This document shows positions 1 to 8,047 of a DNA stretch of 8,047 nucleotides, in pieces. Below the pieces are notes generated by a model. It made no database searches. It was not told the origin of the DNA and saw only the letters and a program-made list of their open reading frames with translations. Both the position numbers and the translations under genes were made by a program. Within the stretch, counting starts at the first letter, position 1, and each line of letters begins with the position of its first letter. Source of the DNA: a virus (Duplodnaviria; Heunggongvirae; Uroviricota; Caudoviricetes); IMG/VR virus record IMGVR_UViG_2531839580_000015; one strand, 5' to 3'.

Positions 1-136
1 ACAACTGAGTAAACGAGAGAGGTATACCGACAAATGGCAGCGACGCACACACTCCCTCTGGCGTCACCGGGAATGGCACGCATCTGCCTTTACGGGGATT
101 TGCAACGATTTGGCCGCCGCATCGACCTTCGTGTGA
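1..136 (+). CDS. K: 3' end of tail assembly protein K homolog (partial, 5' truncated by window start)
   Basis: The frame using positions 2,5,8... is open from the window edge to TGA at 134-136 (44 codons). It overlaps the ATG of the downstream I gene (34) by 103 nt in a different frame, which is the K/I overlap I recall for phage lambda. The fragment is too short for me to confirm by sequence recall. Confidence 0.5.
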   Translation, partial: QLSKRERYTDKWQRRTHSLWRHREWHASAFTGICNDLAAASTFV

Positions 137-675
137 AAACGGGGGCCGAAGCCATCCGGGCGCTGGCCATGCAGATCCCGGCGTTTCGTCAGAAGCTGAG
201 CGACGGCTGGTATCAGGTACGCATTGCCGGGCGTGATGCAGGTAAAACCGAATTGTCTGCCCGTCTTAATGAGCCGCTGGAAAATGGTGCCGTGATCCAT
301 ATCGTGCCGCGTCTGGCAGGAGCCAAAAGTGGCGGTGTGTTTCAGGCTGTGCTGGGGGCGGCTGTTATGGCGGTTGCTATATGGATGCCGGGGGTAGGAA
401 TTATGGCGAGTAATCTGCTGTTTTCTCTCGGTGCCAGTATGGTGCTCGGTGGTGTGGCGCAGATGCTGGCACCGAAAGCCAGAACTCCCCGTACACAGAC
501 AACGGATAACGGCAAACAGAACACCTATTTCTCCTCACTGGATAACATGGTTGCCCAGGGCAATGTTCTGCCTGTTCTGTACGGTGAAATGCGCGTGGGG
601 TCACGTGTGGTTTCTCAGGAGATCAGCACGGCAGACGAAGGGGATGGTGGTCAGGTTGTGGTGATTGGTCGCTGA
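34..675 (+). CDS. I: Tail assembly protein I (lambda gpI family), 213 aa, apparently intact
   Basis: ATG at 34 preceded by GAGAGG at 17-22. The translation (MAATHTLPLASPGMARICLYGDLQRFGRRIDLRVKTGAEAIRALA...VVSQEISTADEGDGGQVVVIGR) matches lambda gpI at both ends, with a shorter, divergent hydrophobic Gly/Ala-rich centre. It sits 60 nt upstream of J, as in lambda. Confidence 0.9.
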   Translation: MAATHTLPLASPGMARICLYGDLQRFGRRIDLRVKTGAEAIRALAMQIPAFRQKLSDGWYQVRIAGRDAGKTELSARLNEPLENGAVIHIVPRLAGAKSGGVFQAVLGAAVMAVAIWMPGVGIMASNLLFSLGASMVLGGVAQMLAPKARTPRTQTTDNGKQNTYFSSLDNMVAQGNVLPVLYGEMRVGSRVVSQEISTADEGDGGQVVVIGR

Positions 676-735: not shown

Positions 736-3700
736 ATGGGTAAAGGCAGCAGTAAGGGGCATACCCCGCGCGAAGCAAAGGACAACCTGAAGTCCACGCA
801 GTTGCTGAGTGTGATCGATGCCATCAGCGAAGGGCCGGTTGAAGGTCCGGTGGATGGATTAAAAAGCGTGCTGCTGAACAGTACACCGGTGCTGGACAGT
901 GAGGGGAATACTAACATCTCTGGTGTCACGGTGGTGTTCCGGGCAGGTGAGCAGGAACAGACACCGCCGGAGGGATTTGAATCATCAGGTTCCGAGACGG
1001 TACTGGGTACGGAAGTGAAATACGACACGCCGATTACCCGGACCATCACGTCGGCAAACATCGACCGTCTGCGCTTTACCTTCGGTGTGCAGGCACTGGT
1101 GGAAACCACCTCAAAGGGGGACCGGAATCCGTCGGAAGTCGCCTGCTGGTTCAGATACACGTAAGGTGGCTGGGTGACGGAAAAAGACATCACCATTAAG
1201 GGCAAAACCACTCCAGTATCTGGCCTCGGTGGTGGTGGATAACCTGCCGCCGCGCCCGTTTAATATCCGGATGCGCAGATGACGCCGGACAGCACCACAG
1301 ACCAGCTGCAGAACAAAACGCTCTGGTCGTCATACACCGAAATATCGATGTGAAACAGTGCTACCCGAACACGGCACTGGTCGGCGTGCAGGTGGACTCG
1401 GAGCAGTTCGGCAGCCAGCAGGTGAGCCGTAATTATCATCTGCGCGGGCGTATTCTGCAGGTGCCGTCGAACTATAACCCGCAGACGCGGCAATACAGCG
1501 GTATCTGGGACGGAACGTTTAAGCCAGCATACAGCAACAACATGGCCTGGTGTCTGTGGGATATGCTGACCCATCCGCGCTACGGCATGGGGAAACGTCT
1601 TGGTGCGGCAGATGTGGATAAATGGGCGCTGTATGTCATCGGCCAGTACTGCGACCAGTCGGTGCCGGACGGTTTTGGCGGCACGGAGCCGCGCATCACC
1701 TGTAATGCCTACCTGACCACGCAGCGTAAGGCGTGGGATGTGCTCAGTGATTTCTGCTCGGCGATGCGCTGTATGCCGGTATGGAACGGGCAGACGCTGA
1801 CGTTCGTGCAGGACCGACCATCAGATAAGGTGTGGACCTATAACCGCAGTAATGTGGTGATGCCGGATGATGGCGCGCCGTTCCGCTACAGCTTCAGCGC
1901 CCTGAAGGACCGCCATAATGCCGTTGAGGTGAACTGGATTGACCCGAACAACGGCTGGGAGACGGCGACAGAGCTTGTTGAAGATACGCAGGCCATTGCC
2001 CGTTACGGTCGTAACGTCACGAAGATGGATGCCTTTGGCTGTACCAGCCGGGGGCAGGCACACCGCGCCGGGCTGTGGCTGATTAAAACGGAACTGCTGG
2101 AAACGCAGACCGTGGACTTCAGCGTGGGTGCGAAGGGCTTCGCCATGTACCGGGGATGTCATTGAAATCTGCGATGATGACTATGCGGTATCGCACCGGG
2201 GGCGCGTGCTGGCGGTGAACAGCCAGACCCGGACGCTGACGCTCGACCGTGAAATCACGCTGCCATCTCCGGACCACGCTGATAAGCCTGGTTGACGGAG
2301 GGATCCGGTCAGCGTGGAGGTCAGTCCGTCACCGACGGCGTGAAGGTAAAGTGAGCCGTGTTCCTGACGGCGTTGCGATACAGCGTTGGGGGCTGAAGCT
2401 GCCGACGTGCGCCAGCGCCTGTTCCGCTGCGTGAGTATCCGTGAGAACGAGACGGCACGTATGCCATCACCGCCGTGCAGCATGTACCGGAAAAAGAGCC
2501 ATCGTGGATAACGGGGCGCACTTTGACGGCGACCAGAGCGGCACGGTGAATGGTGTCACGCCGCCGCGTGCAGCACTGACGCGAAGTCACCGCAGACAGC
2601 GGGGATATCAGGTCTGGCCGCTGGGAACGCCGAAGGTGGTGAAGGGCGTGAGTTCATGCTTCGCCTGACCGTGGCAGCGGATGACGGCAGTGAGCGGCTG
2701 GTCAGCACGGCCCGGACGACGGAAACCACTTACCGCTTCACACAACTGGCGCTGGGGAACTACAGGCTGACAGTCCGGGCAGTAAATGCGTGGGGGCAGC
2801 AGGGCGATCCGGCATCGGTATCGTTCCGGATTGCCGCACCGGCAGCGCCGTCGCAGATTGAGCTGACACCGGGGTATTTTCAGATAACCGCCACGCCGCA
2901 TCTTGCGGTTTATGACCCGACGGTACAGTTTGAGTTCTGGTTCTCGGAAAAGCGGATTGCGGATATCAGGCAGGTTGAAACCGCAGCCCGCTATCTTGGC
3001 TCGGCGCTGTACTGGATAGCTGCCAGTATCAATATCAAACCGGGCCATGATTATTACTTTTATATCCGCAGTGTGAACACCGTTGGCAAATCGGCATTCG
3101 TGGAGGCCGTCGGTCGGGCGAGCGATGATGCGGAAGGTTACCTGGATTTTTTCAAAGGCAAGATAACCGAATCCCATCTCGGCAAGGAGCTGCTGGAAAA
3201 AGTCGAGCTGACGGAGGATAACGCCAGCAGACTGGAGGAGTTTTCGAAAGAGTGGAAGGACGCCAACGATAAGTGGAATGCCATGTGGGCTGTCAAAATT
3301 GAGCAGACCAAAGACGGCAAACATTATGTCGCGGGTATTGGCCTCAGCATGGAGGACACGGAAGAAGGCAAGCTGAGCCAGTTCCTGGTTGCCGCTAACC
3401 GTATCGCGTTTATTGATCCGTCTAATGGCAACACAAGACCAATGTTTGTTGGTCAGGGCGATCAGATATTCATGAACGACGTGTTCCTGAAACGCCTGAC
3501 GGCTCCGACCATTACCAGCGGCGGTAATCCTCCGGCATTTTCCCTGACACCGGACGGGCGGCTGACGGCGAAAAATGCCGATATCAGCGGTAACGTGAAT
3601 GCGAACTCCGGGACGCTCAACAACGTCACGATTAACGAGAACTGTCGGGTTCTGGGAAAACTGTCCGCCAACCAGATTGAAGGCGATCTCGTTAAAACAG

Positions 3701-4095
3701 TGGGCAAAGCTTTCCCCCGGGACTCCCGTGCACCGGAACGGTGGCCATCAGGGACCATCACCGTCAGGGTTTATGACGATCAGCCGTTTGACCGGCAGAT
3801 TGTTATTCCGGCGGTGGCATTCAGCGGCGCTAAACATGAGAGGGAGAATAACGATATTTATTCGTCATGCCGCCTGATAGTACGGAAAAACGGTGCTGAA
3901 ATTTATAACCGTACCGCGCTGGATAATACGCTGATTTACAGTGGTGTTATTGATATGCCAGCTGGTCGCGGCCACATGACGCTGGAGTTTTCGGTGTCAT
4001 CATGGCTGGTAAATGACTGGTATCCCACAGCAAGTATCAGCGATTTGCTGGTTGTGGTGATGAAGAAAGCCACCGCAGGCATCAGTATCAGCTGA
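736..4095 (+). pseudogene. J: Tail tip host-specificity protein J (lambda gpJ family); reading frame broken into at least five segments
   Basis: ATG at 736 with GGAG at 724-727. The N-terminus MGKGSSKGHTPREAKDNLKSTQLLSVIDAISEGP... matches lambda J. The homologous reading continues through 736-1164, short pieces in alternating frames across 1165-1350 (in-frame TAA at 1162-1164, stops at 1240-1242, 1280-1282 and 1351-1353), 1350-2165, 2249-2434 and 2441-2668, then 2656-4095, which ends ...[10 protein letters not shown] with stop TGA at 4093-4095. Total span is 3360 nt against 3399 nt for lambda J. J-like peptides ([47 protein letters not shown]) are recoverable from different frames in 2165-2660. 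Confidence 0.85.
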
Positions 4096-4162: not shown

Positions 4163-4759
4163 ATGCGTAAAGTTTGTGCAGCCATTTTGTCCGCAGCCAT
4201 CTGTCTGGCCGTATCCGGTGCGCCTGCATGGGCGTCTGAGCAGCAGGCCACACTGAGCGCAGGGTATCTTCATGCCCGTACGAACGCTCCCGGCAGCGAT
4301 AATCTGAACGGGATTAACGTGAAATACCGTTATGAGTTTACGGACACGCTGGGGCTGATTACGTCATTCAGTTATGCCAACGCTGAGATGAGCAAAAAAC
4401 GCATTACAGCGATACCCGCTGGCATGAGATTCCGTGCGTAACCGCTGGTTCAGCGTGATGGCGGGCCGTCTGTGCGCGTGAATGAATGGTTCAGCGCGTA
4501 TGCGATGGCGGGTGTGGCTTACAGCCGTGTGTCGACTTTCTCCGGGGATTATCTTCGCGTAACTGACAACAAGGGGAAAAAGCACGATGTGCTGACCGGA
4601 AGTGATGACGGTCGCCACAGCAACACGTCTCTGGCGTGGGGGGCTGGCGTGCAGTTTAACCCGACCGAATCCGTGGCCATTGATATTGCTTATGAAGGCT
4701 CCGGCAGTGGTGACTGGCGCACTGACGGTTTCATCGTGGGTGTCGGTTATAAATTCTGA
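4163..4759 (+). pseudogene. lom: Lom outer-membrane protein (Ail/Lom/OmpX/PagC beta-barrel family), prophage moron; frame interrupted mid-gene
   Basis: ATG at 4163 preceded by GAGAGG. The N-terminus MRKVCAAILSAAICLAVSGAPAWA is a typical signal peptide, and SEQQATLSAGYLHARTNAPGSDNLNGINVKYRYEFTDTLG... matches lambda Lom, as does the C-terminus ...AIDIAYEGSGSGDWRTDGFIVGVGYKF (stop TGA 4757-4759). Between about 4386 and 4462 the Lom-like reading moves through all three frames: DEQKTHYSDTRWHE in one, DSVRNRWFSVMA in another, then back to GPSVRVNEW. This leaves an in-frame TAA at 4439-4441. If the three shifts are sequencing errors the gene is intact. Confidence 0.8.
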
Positions 4760-4823: not shown

Positions 4824-7800
4824 ATGGCAGTAAAGATTTCAGGTGTACTGAAAGACGGCACAGGAAAACCGGTACAGAACTGCACAATCCAGCTGAAAGC
4901 AAAACGTAACAGCACCACGGTGGTGGTGAACACGCTGGCCTCAGAAAATCCGGATGAAGCCGGGCGTTACAGTATGGACGTTGAGTACGGTCAGTACAGC
5001 GTTATTCTGTTGGTGGAAGGATTCCCGCCGTCACATGCCGGGACCATCACCGTGTATGAAGATTCCCGACCCGGTACGCTGAATGATTTTCTCGGTGCCA
5101 TGACGGAGGATGATGCCCGTCCGGAGGCACTGCGCCGTTTTGAGCTGATGGTGGAAGAGGTGGCGCGTAACGCGTCCGTGGTGGCACAGAACACGGCAGC
5201 CGCAAAGAAGTCAGCCAGTGATGCCGGCACATCTGCCAGTGAGGCGGCAACCCATGCGACTGATGCTGCAGGCTCAGCACGCGCAGCCAGCACGTCAGCC
5301 GGACAGGCCGCGTCGTCGGCTCAGTCAGCATCTTCCAGCGCAGGAACGGCATCAACAAAGGCCAGTGAAGCATCGAAAAGTGCTGCTGCTGCAGAGTCCT
5401 CAAAAAGCGCGGCAGCTACCAGTGCCGCTGCGGCGAAAACGTCAGAAACGAATGCGGCAGCGTCACAACAATCAGCAGCCACTTCTGCATCCGCCGCGAC
5501 CACGAAGGCGTCAGAAGCAGCCACCTCAGCCCGGGATGCGGCGGCCTCAAAAGAGGCAGCGAAATCATCAGAAACGAACGCATCATCAAGCGCCAGTAGT
5601 GCCGCTTCCTCGGCAACGGCGGCAGGAAATTCCGCGAAGGCGGCAAAAACGTCCGAGACGAACGCCAGGTCTTCTGAAACGGCAGCGGGACAGAGTGCCT
5701 CAGCTGCGGCAGGCTCAAAAACAGCGGCTGCATCATCTGCCAGTGCCGCATCAACAAGTGCCGGGCAGGCCTCAGCCAGTGCCACCGCTGCCGGAAAGTC
5801 GGCAGAAAGTGCCGCATCGTCTGCTTCAACAGCCACAACGAAGGCTGGCGAAGCCACTGAACAGGCCAGCGCAGCAGCGAGGTCAGCTTCCGCAGCGAAG
5901 ACATCCGAAACGAACGCGAAAGCGTCGGAAACCCGTGCAGAATCCTCAAAAACGGCTGCCGCATCGTCAGCCAGTTCGGCGGCGTCATCGGCATCATCGG
6001 CGTCTGCTTCAAAAGATGAGGCGACCATACAGGCGTCAGCAGCGAAGGGCAGCGCCACGACGGCATCCACGAAGGCGACAGAGGCTGCTGGTAGTGCGAC
6101 GGCAGCAGCTCAGAGCAAAAGTACGGCGGAATCTGCAGCAACGCGCGCTGAGACAGCGGCAAAACGGGCAGAGGATATTGCATCCGCCGTGGCGCTTGAG
6201 GATGCGAGCACGACGAAAAAGGGGATAGTACAGCTCAGTAGTGCGACTAACAGCACGTCTGAAACGCTGGCGGCAACGCCAAAGGCAGTAAAATCAGCCT
6301 ATGACAATGCAGAGAAACGTCTGCAGAAAGACCAGAACGGCGCTGATATACCCGATAAGGGACGCTTCCTGAACAACATTAACGCGGTCAGTAAAACAGA
6401 CTTTGCTGATAAGCGTGGTATGCGTTATGTGCGGGTTAACGCTCCTGCAGGTGCAACATCTGGAAAATATTACCCTGTTGTTGTTATGCGTTCTGCTGGC
6501 TCAGTAAGCGAACTGGCATCAAGGGTCATTATCACCACGGCAACGCGAACCGCAGGCGATCCGATGAATAACTGCGAGTTTAACGGATTTGTTATGCCTG
6601 GTGGCTGGACTGACAGGGGGCGTTATGCTTATGGAATGTTCTGGCAATATCAAAACAATGAACGAGCCATCCACTCAATAATGATGAGTAATAAGGGCGA
6701 TGATTTGCGCTCTGTGTTCTATGTTGATGGCGCTGCTTTCCCTGTTTTTGCGTTTATCGAAGATGGCCTGTCAATATCCGCACCTGGTGCTGATCTCGTT
6801 GTTAATGATACGACCTATAAGTTTGGGGCAACAAATCCGGCGACTGAATGTATCGCGGCGGACGTTATCCTTGATTTTAAGAGTGGGCGTGGTTTTTATG
6901 AGTCTCATTCGTTAATCGTTAACGATAACTTGTCGTGCAAAAAACTTTTTGCCACAGACGAAATTGTAGCGCGTGGTGGTAATCAGATTCGAATGATAGG
7001 TGGGGAGTATGGGGCATTATGGCGTAATGATGGCGCTAAAACTTACCTGCTGCTTACCAATCAAGGTGATGTTTATGGTGGCTGGAATACATTAAGACCG
7101 TTTGCTATTGATAACGCAACCGGCGAACTGGTTATTGGAACCAAACTGTCTGCAAGTCTGAACGGTAACGCATTGACAGCAACAAAGCTGCAAACGCCAA
7201 GACGGGTTTCTGGGATTGAGTTTGATGGTTCCAGAGATATTACTTTAACCGCCGCGCATGTGGCTGCTTTTGCCAGAAGGGCAACGGATACATATGCCGA
7301 TGCGGATGGTGGCGTTCCCTGGAATGCCGAATCAGGCGCTTATAATGTCACCCGCTCTGGCGACAGCTATATTCTGGTTAACTTCTATACCGGAGTCGGA
7401 AGTTGCCGGACCTTGCAGATGAAGGCACATTACAGAAATGGAGGTCTGTTCTACCGTTCCTCAAGAGATGGCTATGGTTTTGAGGAAGACTGGGCAGAAG
7501 TTTATACCTCGAAAAATCTTCCACCAGAAAGCTACCCAGTCGGCGCACCAATCCCGTGGCCATCAGATACCGTTCCGTCTGGTTATGCCCTGATGCAGGG
7601 GCAGACTTTTAACAAATCTGCCTACCCGAAACTTGCAGCCGCTTATCCGTCAGGCGTGATCCCTGATATGCGTGGCTGGACGATTAAGGGCAAGCCCGCC
7701 AGTGGTCGTGCCGTATTGTCTCAGGAACAGGACGGCATAAAATCGCATACCCACAGCGCCAGCGCATCCAGTACTGATTTGGGGACGAAAACCACATCGT

Positions 7801-8047
7801 CGTTTGATTACGGCACTAAATCCACGAATAACACTGGTGCGCATACCCATAGTTTAAGTGGCAGCACGAATGCAGCTGGTAATCACAGCCATAGAGATGG
7901 CCGTCGATTTAACCCCAGTGTTTTTAAAGATACTTATCAATATGGTTATACAAGCTCAGGTCAAAATACCTGGGGTGTACAAGGCTCAGTAGGTATGTCT
8001 ACGGGGGCGTTAGCTAATACCAGTACAGATGGTAACCATAGCCACTC
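4824..8047 (+). CDS. stf: Side tail fibre protein (lambda Stf / Rac StfR-like), 3' truncated by window end; 1074 complete codons without a stop
   Basis: ATG at 4824 preceded by GGGGTGA. I translated the whole frame by hand from 4824 to 8047 and found no stop codon. The N-terminus [62 protein letters not shown]... is the conserved lambda Stf / StfR start. An Ala/Ser/Thr-rich shaft follows, then ...[76 protein letters not shown]... with repeated His-x-His motifs. The ORF track omits it only because it runs off the window. Confidence 0.9.
5190..6200 (+). repeat. Low-complexity Ala/Ser/Thr-rich degenerate repeat region encoding the stf shaft
   Basis: About 1 kb in which roughly two thirds of codons are GCN, TCN/AGY or ACN. 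An 18-nt motif AAR-ACN/TCN-TCN-GAR-ACG-AAY (peptide K-T/S-S-E-T-N) recurs four times at irregular spacing, at about 5436-5456, 5562-5579, 5645-5662 and 5898-5915. The region is stop-free in several frames on both strands. Confidence 0.75.

Follow-up and report, generated by a model that had tools for sequence, protein, structure and literature searches.

A Rac StfR-type side tail fibre gene with a probably exchanged middle cassette between two conserved anchors

Introduction

Which part of a side tail fibre has been exchanged, and what in the DNA reveals the exchange? The question is raised by the stf gene at the end of an 8,047-nt stretch of caudoviricete DNA (IMG/VR record IMGVR_UViG_2531839580_000015; the whole stretch is hereinafter designated the window). 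A preliminary description of the sequence had noticed that the GC content falls after the Ala-rich shaft of the gene, had delimited a module of about 415 codons at 6290-7545, and had proposed that the distal fibre was acquired from a different lineage. It has been textbook matter since the early 1990s that tail fibres are mosaic among lambdoid, P2/Mu/P1-type and T-even phages, and a swappable middle cassette is a classic instance of this known phenomenon, by which phages reshuffle the parts used in host recognition. We conclude, with a probability of about 0.9, that the gene is a lambdoid stf of the Rac StfR type, that it encodes a fibre built of serial modules, and that its middle cassette was most likely exchanged at the anchors by homologous recombination.

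Results

Genomic setting and module map of stf

The window contains, in order, I (34-675), fragments of J (736-4095), fragments of lom (4163-4759) and stf. The position of stf directly downstream of J and lom is the same in lambda, E. coli 602354 and the nearest E. coli prophages. The window comprises the 5' 95% of stf in its canonical slot after I, J and lom; the stop codon and tfa fall beyond the window end. In the nearest relatives, Ec-U11, Chlobot and K-12 Rac, tfa lies immediately 3' of stf. The modules of the gene are as follows.

4824-8047 (window end), plus strand: stf, an open frame from the ATG with 1,074 codons and no stops
4824-5183, plus strand, residues 1-120 (Pfam match to residue 134): Stf N-terminal attachment domain, PF08400 (phage_tail_N), lambdoid-specific
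5184-6221, plus strand, residues 121-466: Ala/Ser/Thr-rich repetitive shaft, assigned from composition, repeats and partial lambda homology
6222-6293, plus strand, residues 467-490: left conserved anchor, the final lambda-shared stretch ahead of the cassette
6294-6374, plus strand, residues 491-517: cassette block a, a linker aligned to Mu S and without a lambda counterpart
6375-6923, plus strand, residues 518-700: cassette block b, an all-beta globular domain without a close solved structure
6924-7151, plus strand, residues 701-776: cassette block c, a predicted beta-prism of the T4 gp34 P4 type flanked by triple beta-helix, assigned from PF21446 and alignments to gp34 and Mu S
7152-7541, plus strand, residues 777-906: cassette block d, a Mu S'-like and P2-like-H-like domain, assigned from alignments to the Mu S/S' chimera and P2-like H
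7542-7685, plus strand, residues 907-954: right conserved anchor and collar domain, PF07484 (Collar), E=5.7e-12
7686-7862, plus strand, residues 955-1013: conserved proximal His-box (GxHxH), putative receptor-binding end, assigned from colinearity and gp37 homology
7863-8047, plus strand, residues 1014-1074: distal variable tip patch, cut by the window end, assigned from divergence from Rac StfR and low GC

The Pfam architecture of the protein is thus PF08400, PF21446 and PF07484. Three features of a lambda-type Stf are present: the PF08400 N-terminus, the position after J and lom, and a C-terminus with collar and His-box. The gene is an ordinary member of the Rac StfR type of prophage side tail fibre genes and is already catalogued; in RefSeq the allele is stfR, with the product name 'prophage tail fiber N-terminal domain-containing protein'. 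Two further open reading frames, off-frame at 6700-6915 (plus strand) and antisense at 7378-7563 (minus strand), sit within the conserved open stf frame and are taken to be spurious. Searches for Rfam families, tRNAs and TRF tandem repeats returned none in the window or in the stf region.

The N-terminus matches PF08400 over residues 1-134 of 134 (E=1.5e-71, 239 bits versus a cutoff of 26.6). Identity reaches 92.5% with lambda orf-401 and 85-100% with other lambdoid and Stx phages, and the domain is matched by 318 phage records, almost all of them lambdoid. In the following 350 residues (121-470) there are 131 Ala, 83 Ser and 41 Thr, and GC2 of the shaft reaches 0.786. The shaft contains degenerate direct repeats phased by 21 nt. 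Compared with lambda it has ~305 nt of additional repeats (5732-6036). The left anchor is identical or nearly so in lambda Stf, K-12 StfR, Chlobot, Turner, mEp460, PhiR68_2, P2-like H and 9g gp70, and aligns to Mu S residues 122-145. The right anchor motif (GAPIPWPSD...) is found in lambda, Rac, Chlobot, Turner, mEp460, PhiR68_2 and gp37 of the T-even phage P896; its conservation in lambda and Rac had already been stated. The peptides quoted in the preliminary description are all present: GRFLNN... from residue 513 (6360-6500), YRSSRDG... from residue 877 (7452-7541), and GAPIPWPSD from residue 907 (7542).

Upstream of stf, J and lom are disrupted by 31 small deletions, all in one direction and grouped into three patches. 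The clustering of these deletions suggests local sequence-quality problems. Given the broken J and lom, the prophage or its assembly may be defective.

Junctions with lambda and with Rac StfR

In a blastn comparison, stf is homologous to lambda at 4824-5731, 6037-6292 and 7542-7820, with 81-87% DNA identity in the flanks of the cassette. No lambda counterpart was found for 6293-7541 by blastn or for residues ~500-902 by tblastn, and lambda holds an unrelated block of 148 residues at this site. DNA homology to lambda returns at nt 7542, at 86%. The blastn limits lie within 3 nt of those first described, and the segment is 416 codons long; its absence from lambda Stf, as first described, is borne out by both searches.

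Between the anchors of the window there are 416-417 residues. Among lambdoid Stf proteins, the same two anchors enclose 148 residues in lambda, 308 in mEp460 and PhiR68_2, and 417 in the StfR type. As judged from these alignments, the difference from lambda is a replacement, in one direction or the other, of the cassette between two conserved anchors, not an insertion. The supposed resemblance to Rac is very close, with 391 of 394 residues of the segment identical to K-12 StfR.

The exchanged part is the middle of the fibre, and the collar directly after it (7542-7820) is lambda-like. An extra junction near nt ~7862 gives the window a tip unlike that of Rac StfR. Specifically, the His-box is colinear with K-12 stfR to nt 7862, with Chlobot to 7819 and with lambda to 7820, and the protein alignment stays identical through ...NNTGAHTHS. 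Divergence past the His-box rules out that the window carries the K-12 StfR tip. Tip and cassette also occur in other combinations. mEp460_ev081 and PhiR68_2 share residues 1-522 and 876-1074 of the window, tip included, around another middle, and PhiR30_1 has a 71%-identical cassette joined to the same tip as the window. The fibre is accordingly a modular mosaic, as had been proposed; the proposal that the distal fibre was acquired has to be amended, as the replaced part is the middle and the tip has a junction of its own.

Composition along the gene

Segment GC is 0.612 in the shaft (5190-6200), 0.471 at 6290-7545 and 0.501 at 7545-8047. The spot values that had drawn attention to the region are close to the computed ones: 0.70 at 5281-5340 (reported as about 0.73), 0.45 at 6961-7020 and 0.333 at 7921-7980. 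The last of these had been counted with the low-GC module; it belongs to the separate distal patch and not to the middle cassette, the patch being 7863-8047 (GC 0.448, GC3 0.31). We computed the GC expected from amino-acid composition with the codon usage of the I, J and lom genes of the window. The expectation falls from 0.651 in the shaft to 0.553 in the cassette, which corresponds to about 10 of the 14 percentage points observed.

A shift is also seen at synonymous sites. GC3 falls from 0.50 in the shaft to 0.41 in the cassette (Fisher p=0.027), and the cassette differs more strongly from neighbouring J (0.67; p=4e-17), to which the N-terminus is close (0.60). Within the cassette, GC3 is lowest in block c (0.355). 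Four-fold GC3 alternates along stf (0.67, 0.56, 0.40, 0.62, 0.40). A blind search for a single GC3 change-point places it at residue 524 (permutation p=26/2000), but BIC favours zero splits; blind change-points at residues 124, 524, 840 and 1008 fall near homology junctions. The synonymous-site shift is therefore real yet modest, and composition plays a supporting part in the case for mosaicism. The drop in GC, the main argument first offered for mosaicism, keeps that modest synonymous component and loses the larger share to amino-acid composition. Raw GC was dropped as proof of foreign origin, as it mostly reflects the Ala/Ser/Thr composition of the shaft and BIC speaks against GC3 segmentation. 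For mosaicism the homology evidence is decisive, and composition alone is insufficient.

Composite nature and distribution of the cassette

As read from its alignments, the cassette is itself put together from three or more blocks that assort independently. Residues 471-521, which include block a, align to residues 122-172 of Mu S and the S-S' chimera (PDB 5yvq, 8ju3; i-Evalue ~6e-11). Block b is an all-beta domain that is widely shuffled among fibres. Block c corresponds to PF21446 (Gp34_trimer; residues 663-762, 95.8 bits versus a cutoff of 27); residues 706-777 align to T4 gp34 1036-1107 (9x3r, 4uxe, 5nxf, 5nxh; phmmer E 5e-12 to 2e-11) and residues 710-778 to Mu S 268-336 (5yvq). The stretch 318-415 of the Mu S/S' chimera 8ju3 is matched in block d by residues 809-907 (i-Evalue 3.8e-21), and the block is 49% identical to residues 539-662 of P2-like H. 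Over cassette residues 318-391, identity to FelixO1-like fibres is 43-54%. Block c is missing from P2-like H and P1-like S fibres, in which b is joined straight to d.

E. coli genomes that match stf number 5,141. The cassette is present at a coverage of at least 80% in 1,307 of the 5,426 complete E. coli genomes, about a quarter. The complete cassette is found in only 20 phage records, with lambdoid, Queuovirinae and P2-like backbones, and fragments of it in T-even, T5-like, rV5-like, FelixO1-like and Aeromonas phages. Its blocks are shared with Mu S/S', T4 gp34 (the P4 prism) and P2-like, P1-like and 9g/JenK1 fibres; identity is 45-65% to fibres of P1-like phages, P2-like phages, Mu and T4-type myoviruses. 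The C-terminus matches lambda Stf and T-even gp37. The tip patch is found in only 8 phage records, seven of them lambdoid and one the T-even phage P896 (87.5%); the window tip matches Ec-U11, Kati and mEp460. The best hits of N-terminus, cassette and C-terminus thus come from different phage groups, not from a single consistent set of homologs, in line with the mosaic first proposed.

Alternative explanations

Could the pattern reflect vertical divergence with no exchange at all, an Ala-rich shaft being followed by an ordinary globular region? The amino-acid share of the GC drop and the BIC preference for zero GC3 change-points in stf agree with such a view. However, the cassette has no similarity to the lambda block while its flanks remain 81-87% identical, three different cassettes stand between identical anchors, the cassette blocks resemble P1-like, P2-like, Mu and T4-type fibres at the identities given above, tip and cassette assort independently, and cassette GC3 is far below that of J (0.41 versus 0.67). 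Because the homology junctions are sharp, we regard vertical divergence as effectively refuted. An assembly artefact, in which reads of two prophages were chimerically joined, would find support in the one-directional deletions in the three patches of J and lom, but 1,230 complete E. coli genomes, and likewise the isolated phages Chlobot, Kati, 2H10 and mEp332, share the colinear architecture with 96-99% identity, and the stf frame stays open through every junction. Since independent complete genomes have the identical arrangement, the artefact is refuted, and its probability is close to nil.

The exchange might instead have been carried out by a serine invertase of the Pin/Gin/Cin type at a crossover site inside stf (cf. 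Mu, P1 and e14), not by homologous recombination. A Pin-type gene does lie just 3' of tfa in K-12 Rac (pinR), Turner, mEp460_ev081 and PhiR68_2. In addition, the mEp460-type junction at residue 522 follows an NGADIP...FLNN motif aligned to Mu S ~155-172, past which S and S' differ; we take the Mu gix site to lie at this divergence point. On the other side, a scan of the window for a AAACCNNGGTTT-like core (gix/pix type) with two or fewer mismatches found none in stf; its only two hits, both in J, are at chance level. No inverted-repeat structure is present at nt 6360-6400, a search of the whole of stf gave no significant inverted repeat either, and the lambda-type junctions at residues 490 and 906 fall in plain homology anchors. 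An invertase is thus a very improbable agent of the exchange, and homologous recombination at the anchors is the preferred reading.

Discussion

Proposed origin and function of the cassette

The exchange is inferred from the patchwork of homologies. Most likely, phages and prophages resident in one cell recombined by homology at the conserved anchors. The slot between the two anchors is filled by at least three unrelated cassettes in the lambdoid phages. Experiments have shown that lambda acquires stf/tfa DNA from Rac and Qin by Red-beta-dependent relaxed homologous recombination, at ~2e-6 (PMC3945230).

The protein would form a trimeric fibre with its modules in series: a lambdoid N-terminus docking on the tail tip, the shaft, the 416-residue cassette, and an end with collar and His-box. 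The collar and putative receptor-binding end are of the lambda Stf/T4 gp37 type, and the His-box region is homologous to T-even gp37 distal subunits. The cassette most likely supplies structural shaft and knob domains that fix the length and geometry of the fibre, and host specificity would come mainly from the separately exchangeable tip.

An AF2 monomer model of the whole cassette has a mean pLDDT of 41, with values below 50 across cassette residues 196-416. With a model this poor, structural roles for blocks a, c and d are assigned by sequence homology to fibres of solved structure, and among these the cassette is related to Mu S/S' and T4 gp34. By this homology, block c is predicted to be a P4-type prism domain of the T4 gp34 kind. 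In T4, the corresponding region of gp34 is a triangular five-stranded beta-sheet prism stacked on a triple beta-helix, and residues 1048-1104 form the P4 prism between beta-helix segments 1014-1047 and 1105-1128 (PMC5537660). A word-index protein search with block b retrieved 43 E. coli proteins, mostly fragments, which add scant alignment depth. Block b is a recurrent fibre domain without a solved structure. It is conceivable, if rather doubtful, that it adds a further binding site on the side of the fibre, with a surface glycan as one candidate ligand. StfR-type fibres would then have dual specificity, at the tip and in mid-fibre, and a cassette swap too would alter host range.

Comparison with known fibres

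The closest named relative is K-12 Rac StfR (b1372, NP_415890.2), which is colinear with the window from the start codon to nt 7862 at 96.8% DNA identity. Protein identity is 98.3% in the N-terminus, 96.6% in the shaft and 99.2% in the cassette, and the Pfam architecture is the same. After residue ~1013 the tips differ, with 71% identity and 26 gap columns over residues 907-1074. The upstream region of K-12 Rac is degraded (a ynaA fragment and an IS5-split lomR), whereas the window keeps I, J and lom. The best complete-genome match is Ec-U11 (99.0%), annotated stfR followed by tfa; it stays identical past the His-box, where K-12 StfR and Chlobot diverge from the window.

Lambda (Ur-lambda) Stf, split into orf-401 and orf-314 in lambda PaPa, occupies the same position after J and lom. 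It has both anchor motifs as in the window and a homologous shaft that is ~100 residues shorter, and lacks the PF21446 domain that the window Stf has. Lambda orf-314 is 67% identical to residues 903-1074, the collar and His-box end. Mu S/S' (PDB 5yvq, 9ki1, 8ju3) matches the left anchor with block a, block c and block d; the whole-sequence E value is 1.5e-36 for 8ju3, over three matched stretches, and 2.6e-24 for 5yvq. Block b is unmatched in these Mu chains, and the window Stf has a PF08400 N-terminus and a gp37-type collar/His-box tip, not those of Mu. T4 gp34 (1,289 residues; PDB 4uxe, 5nxf, 5nxh, 9x3r) has only the domain of ~75-100 residues in common with the window Stf. In gp37 of the T-even phage P896 (Gaprivervirus), residues 815-995 are 78% identical to residues 903-1074, and the parts N-terminal to the collar are unrelated; many T-even gp37 proteins are 57-82% identical to the C-terminus of the window Stf.

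Ur-lambda Stf forms trimeric virion fibres and gives faster adsorption (cited in PMC11338833). Lambda Stf has been engineered into functional chimeras by fusion, at R393 or S528, to fibre ends of P2, K1F, K5 and KL106 (Brodel et al. 2024, PMC11338833). R393 precedes the natural left junction by ~25 residues, and S528 lies just ahead of the right anchor. For the engineering of lambda-type delivery particles, the anchors and the His-box junction mark natural points of fusion that evolution has already tested (cf. PMC11338833). The chimeras of Brodel et al. were made in the laboratory, whereas the arrangement in the window is natural and widespread.

Mosaic structure of the side tail fibre gene

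The window covers the rightmost part of a tail gene cluster of the lambda kind, in the order I-J-lom-stf that lambda and intact E. coli prophages also have. The frame starting at ATG 4824, from which residues are numbered below, is the side tail fibre gene (stf). A low-GC module within stf, reported in a preliminary description, is confirmed, and its reading as the mark of a mosaic side tail fibre is supported with four corrections: the GC drop is mostly compositional, the event is a replacement, the middle of the fibre is the part swapped, and the module is composite, with a further junction at the tip.

Gene calls, domains and segments in the window
34–675: I
736–4095: J, in three fragments (736–1164, 1350–2165, 2656–4095)
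4163–4759: lom, in two fragments (4163–4441, 4472–4759)
4824 to past the window end: stf, 1,074 codons without a stop
stf residues 1–134: Pfam PF08400, 'prophage tail fibre N-terminal' (E=1.5e-71)
stf residues 663–762: Pfam PF21446, 'Gp34_trimer' (95.8 bits, cutoff 27)
stf residues 907–954: Pfam PF07484, 'Collar'
6294–7541: cassette, residues 491–906, blocks a–d
7863–8047: distal tip

The I-like ORF encodes 213 aa, compared with 223 aa annotated in lambda; its counterpart in E. coli 602354 is a 'tail assembly protein' of 191 aa (576 nt). J and lom are annotated as intact in the closest E. coli relative. The 31 small indels relative to it are all 1–4-nt deletions in the window, fall in three patches (1138–1343, 2131–2652 and 4385–4465), and break J and lom into the fragments listed. 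The deletions all go in one direction and are clustered, a pattern that fits poor local sequence quality better than natural decay. There is no such damage in stf. Three ORFs of 249–336 aa lie off-frame or antisense over the Ala/Ser/Thr-rich shaft (5218–6228, +; 5321–6070, −; 5416–6183, −) and are most likely by-products of stop-poor GCN-rich repeats. Similarly, the lambda GenBank record has an antisense 'orf206b' annotated within orf-401.

Replacement of the fibre middle

At the DNA level, lambda stf matches the window at 4824–5731 (87%), 6037–6292 (81%) and 7542–7820 (86%), with no homology between these segments. In tblastn against lambda, residues 1–499 match orf-401 and residues 903–1074 match orf-314, with no match for residues ~500–902. 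The two gaps agree that the segment placed at 6290–7545 in the preliminary description is absent from lambda Stf, and its limits agree to within a few bases with those of the block without lambda homology. Lambda Stf, compared as a reconstructed 774-residue protein, carries both flanking motifs (24 residues on the left, 21 on the right) but has 148 unrelated residues between them. Lambda has its own block in the same slot, which makes this a cassette replacement, not the insertion supposed earlier.

K-12 Rac StfR, which the segment was said to resemble, is indeed colinear with the window up to nt 7862 with 96.8% DNA identity, and its cassette is 99.2% identical at the protein level. Of the proposed acquisition of a distal fibre, the mosaic origin stands, but the swapped part is the fibre middle rather than its distal end. 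Besides the cassette swap, a shaft-length polymorphism is indicated: the shaft exceeds that of lambda stf by ~305 nt (~100 residues; 5732–6036) of degenerate Ala/Ser/Thr-rich repeats, which are phased in 21-nt multiples.

Base composition

The peptides quoted earlier were found where they had been placed, and the spot GC values of 0.73, 0.45 and 0.33 were measured as 0.70, 0.45 and 0.333. GC falls from 0.612 in the shaft (5190–6200) to 0.471 at 6290–7545. Of the 350 shaft residues, 131 are Ala, 83 Ser and 41 Thr, and second-position GC is 0.786. Under I/J/lom codon usage, the amino-acid sequence by itself predicts a drop in GC from 0.651 in the shaft to 0.553 in the cassette, so that ~10 of the 14 observed GC points are an effect of protein composition. 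The drop taken as a sign of mosaicism is therefore genuine but mostly compositional, with a modest synonymous shift remaining. Along the gene, GC3 goes from 0.60 (N-terminus) through 0.50 (shaft) to 0.41 (cassette), then to 0.53 (collar/His-box region) and 0.31 (tip); shaft versus cassette gives a Fisher p of 0.027, and cassette versus J gives p=4e-17. Blind maximum-likelihood segmentation of GC3 places change-points at residues 124, 524, 840 and 1008; a single change-point has a permutation p of 26/2000, and BIC prefers no split of the stf GC3 series. The synonymous-site signal is real and modest, and composition supports mosaicism without deciding it. AT skew is very strong in the shaft (5301–6400; A >> T, +0.31 to +0.49) and falls to ~0 where the cassette starts, a sharper boundary marker than GC.

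Composite cassette and distribution

The alignments show the cassette to be a composite module. The left anchor and block a (residues 491–517) align at 471–521 with Mu S 122–172 (PDB 5yvq, 8ju3). Block b (518–700) shares 65% identity with a section of a P1-like S fibre and ~49% with a P2-like H fibre, and is also found in T5-like, rV5-like, and Vibrio and Aeromonas T4-like fibres. Block c (701–776) aligns at 706–777 with T4 gp34 1036–1107 and at 710–778 with Mu S 268–336; in gp34 the corresponding region is seen by crystallography as the P4 triangular beta-prism, flanked on both sides by triple beta-helix (PMC5537660). Block d (777–906) aligns at 809–907 with the Mu S/S' chimera 318–415, and also matches P2-like H 539–662 and FelixO1-like fibres. 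In P2-like and P1-like fibres, block b directly abuts block d, with block c either missing or at another position.

The complete E. coli genomes surveyed number 5,426; of these, 5,141 match some part of stf, 1,230 have the full-length arrangement, and 1,307 match the cassette alone (at least 80% coverage). In a set of 50,697 phage records, 318 match the N-terminus, nearly all of them lambdoid, and 20 contain the complete cassette, on three backbone types: lambdoid (Chlobot, 2H10, mEp332, Kati and ev099 at 99%; Turner, 71%), Queuovirinae siphovirus (9g, 65%; JenK1, 56%) and a P2-like myovirus. Matches to the C-terminus come from phages of the lambda type and from many gp37 genes of T-even phages. 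Clearly, neither GC nor the set of homologues is uniform along stf.

Several StfR-type fibre fragments bear the NCBI/nr name 'short-chain fatty acid transporter, partial', and other homologues are called 'terminase large subunit' or 'ATP-dependent Clp protease proteolytic subunit 1'; the latter two kinds have additional Pfam domains, as would result from fused gene calls. All such names (homologues of 6294–7541 with handles P0033, P0037, P0038, P0042, P0090 and P0110) look like annotation errors.

Distal tip

Past the His box, at residue ~1013 (nt 7862), the window departs from K-12 StfR and phage Chlobot and stays identical to E. coli Ec-U11. The 33% GC stretch falls within this patch, which only eight phage records share: those of seven lambdoids and of the T-even phage P896. 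The gp37-like fibre of Escherichia phage P896 (Tevenvirinae; locus L011, 1208–4396) matches residues 903–1074 (collar and tip) with 78% amino-acid and 73% nucleotide identity, rising to 87.5% over the last 64 residues. This tip variant has therefore crossed between lambdoid and T-even phages.

Two of the seven lambdoids, mEp460_ev081 and PhiR68_2, match the window at residues 1–522 and 876–1074, with a different middle of 308 residues between the anchors; these junctions, 522/876, adjoin the blind change-points 524/840. PhiR30_1 has a 71%-identical cassette and the same tip as the window. Cassette and tip therefore assort independently.

Probable exchange mechanism and comparison with known fibres

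The junctions fall on short motifs that are conserved among fibre genes with no other relationship, a pattern characteristic of homologous recombination at such linkers, which most likely produced the cassette exchange. In experiments, infecting lambda takes up marked stf/tfa DNA from Rac and Qin prophages at a frequency of ~2e-6, and most of this uptake goes through Red-beta, which acts on diverged homologous DNA (De Paepe et al., PMC3945230). A Pin/Gin-type invertase might instead do the swapping, since Rac and a number of carrier phages have Pin-type genes beside tfa; however, stf in the window, which stops short of the region downstream, has no crossover-like site and no meaningful inverted repeats. 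In K-12 Rac, Turner, mEp460_ev081 and PhiR68_2 (loci L002, 13085–13675, pinR; L009, 5563–6153; L010, 4542–5132; L012, 4542–5132), the Pin-type serine invertase gene closely follows tfa and is encoded on the opposite strand, and PhiR68_2 has a stray tfa fragment further on.

By homology to Mu S and T4 gp34 shaft domains, the cassette would supply structural rod and knob domains, specificity would lie mainly in the collar/His-box tip, and the tip would need the Tfa chaperone, whose gene is beyond the window. Chimeras in which P2, K1F, K5 or KL106 fibre ends are joined to lambda Stf at R393 or S528 are functional (Brodel et al., PMC11338833), and these fusion points flank the natural cassette slot.

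The allele is annotated stfR in RefSeq, and the phage 9g record carries the remark 'similar to lambdoid Rac prophage'. Block b, which is without a solved structure, is the sole loose end with some potential for novelty. That stf is mosaic is nothing new: descriptions of mosaic tail fibres common to lambda, P2, Mu, P1 and T-even phages go back to about 1989–1994.
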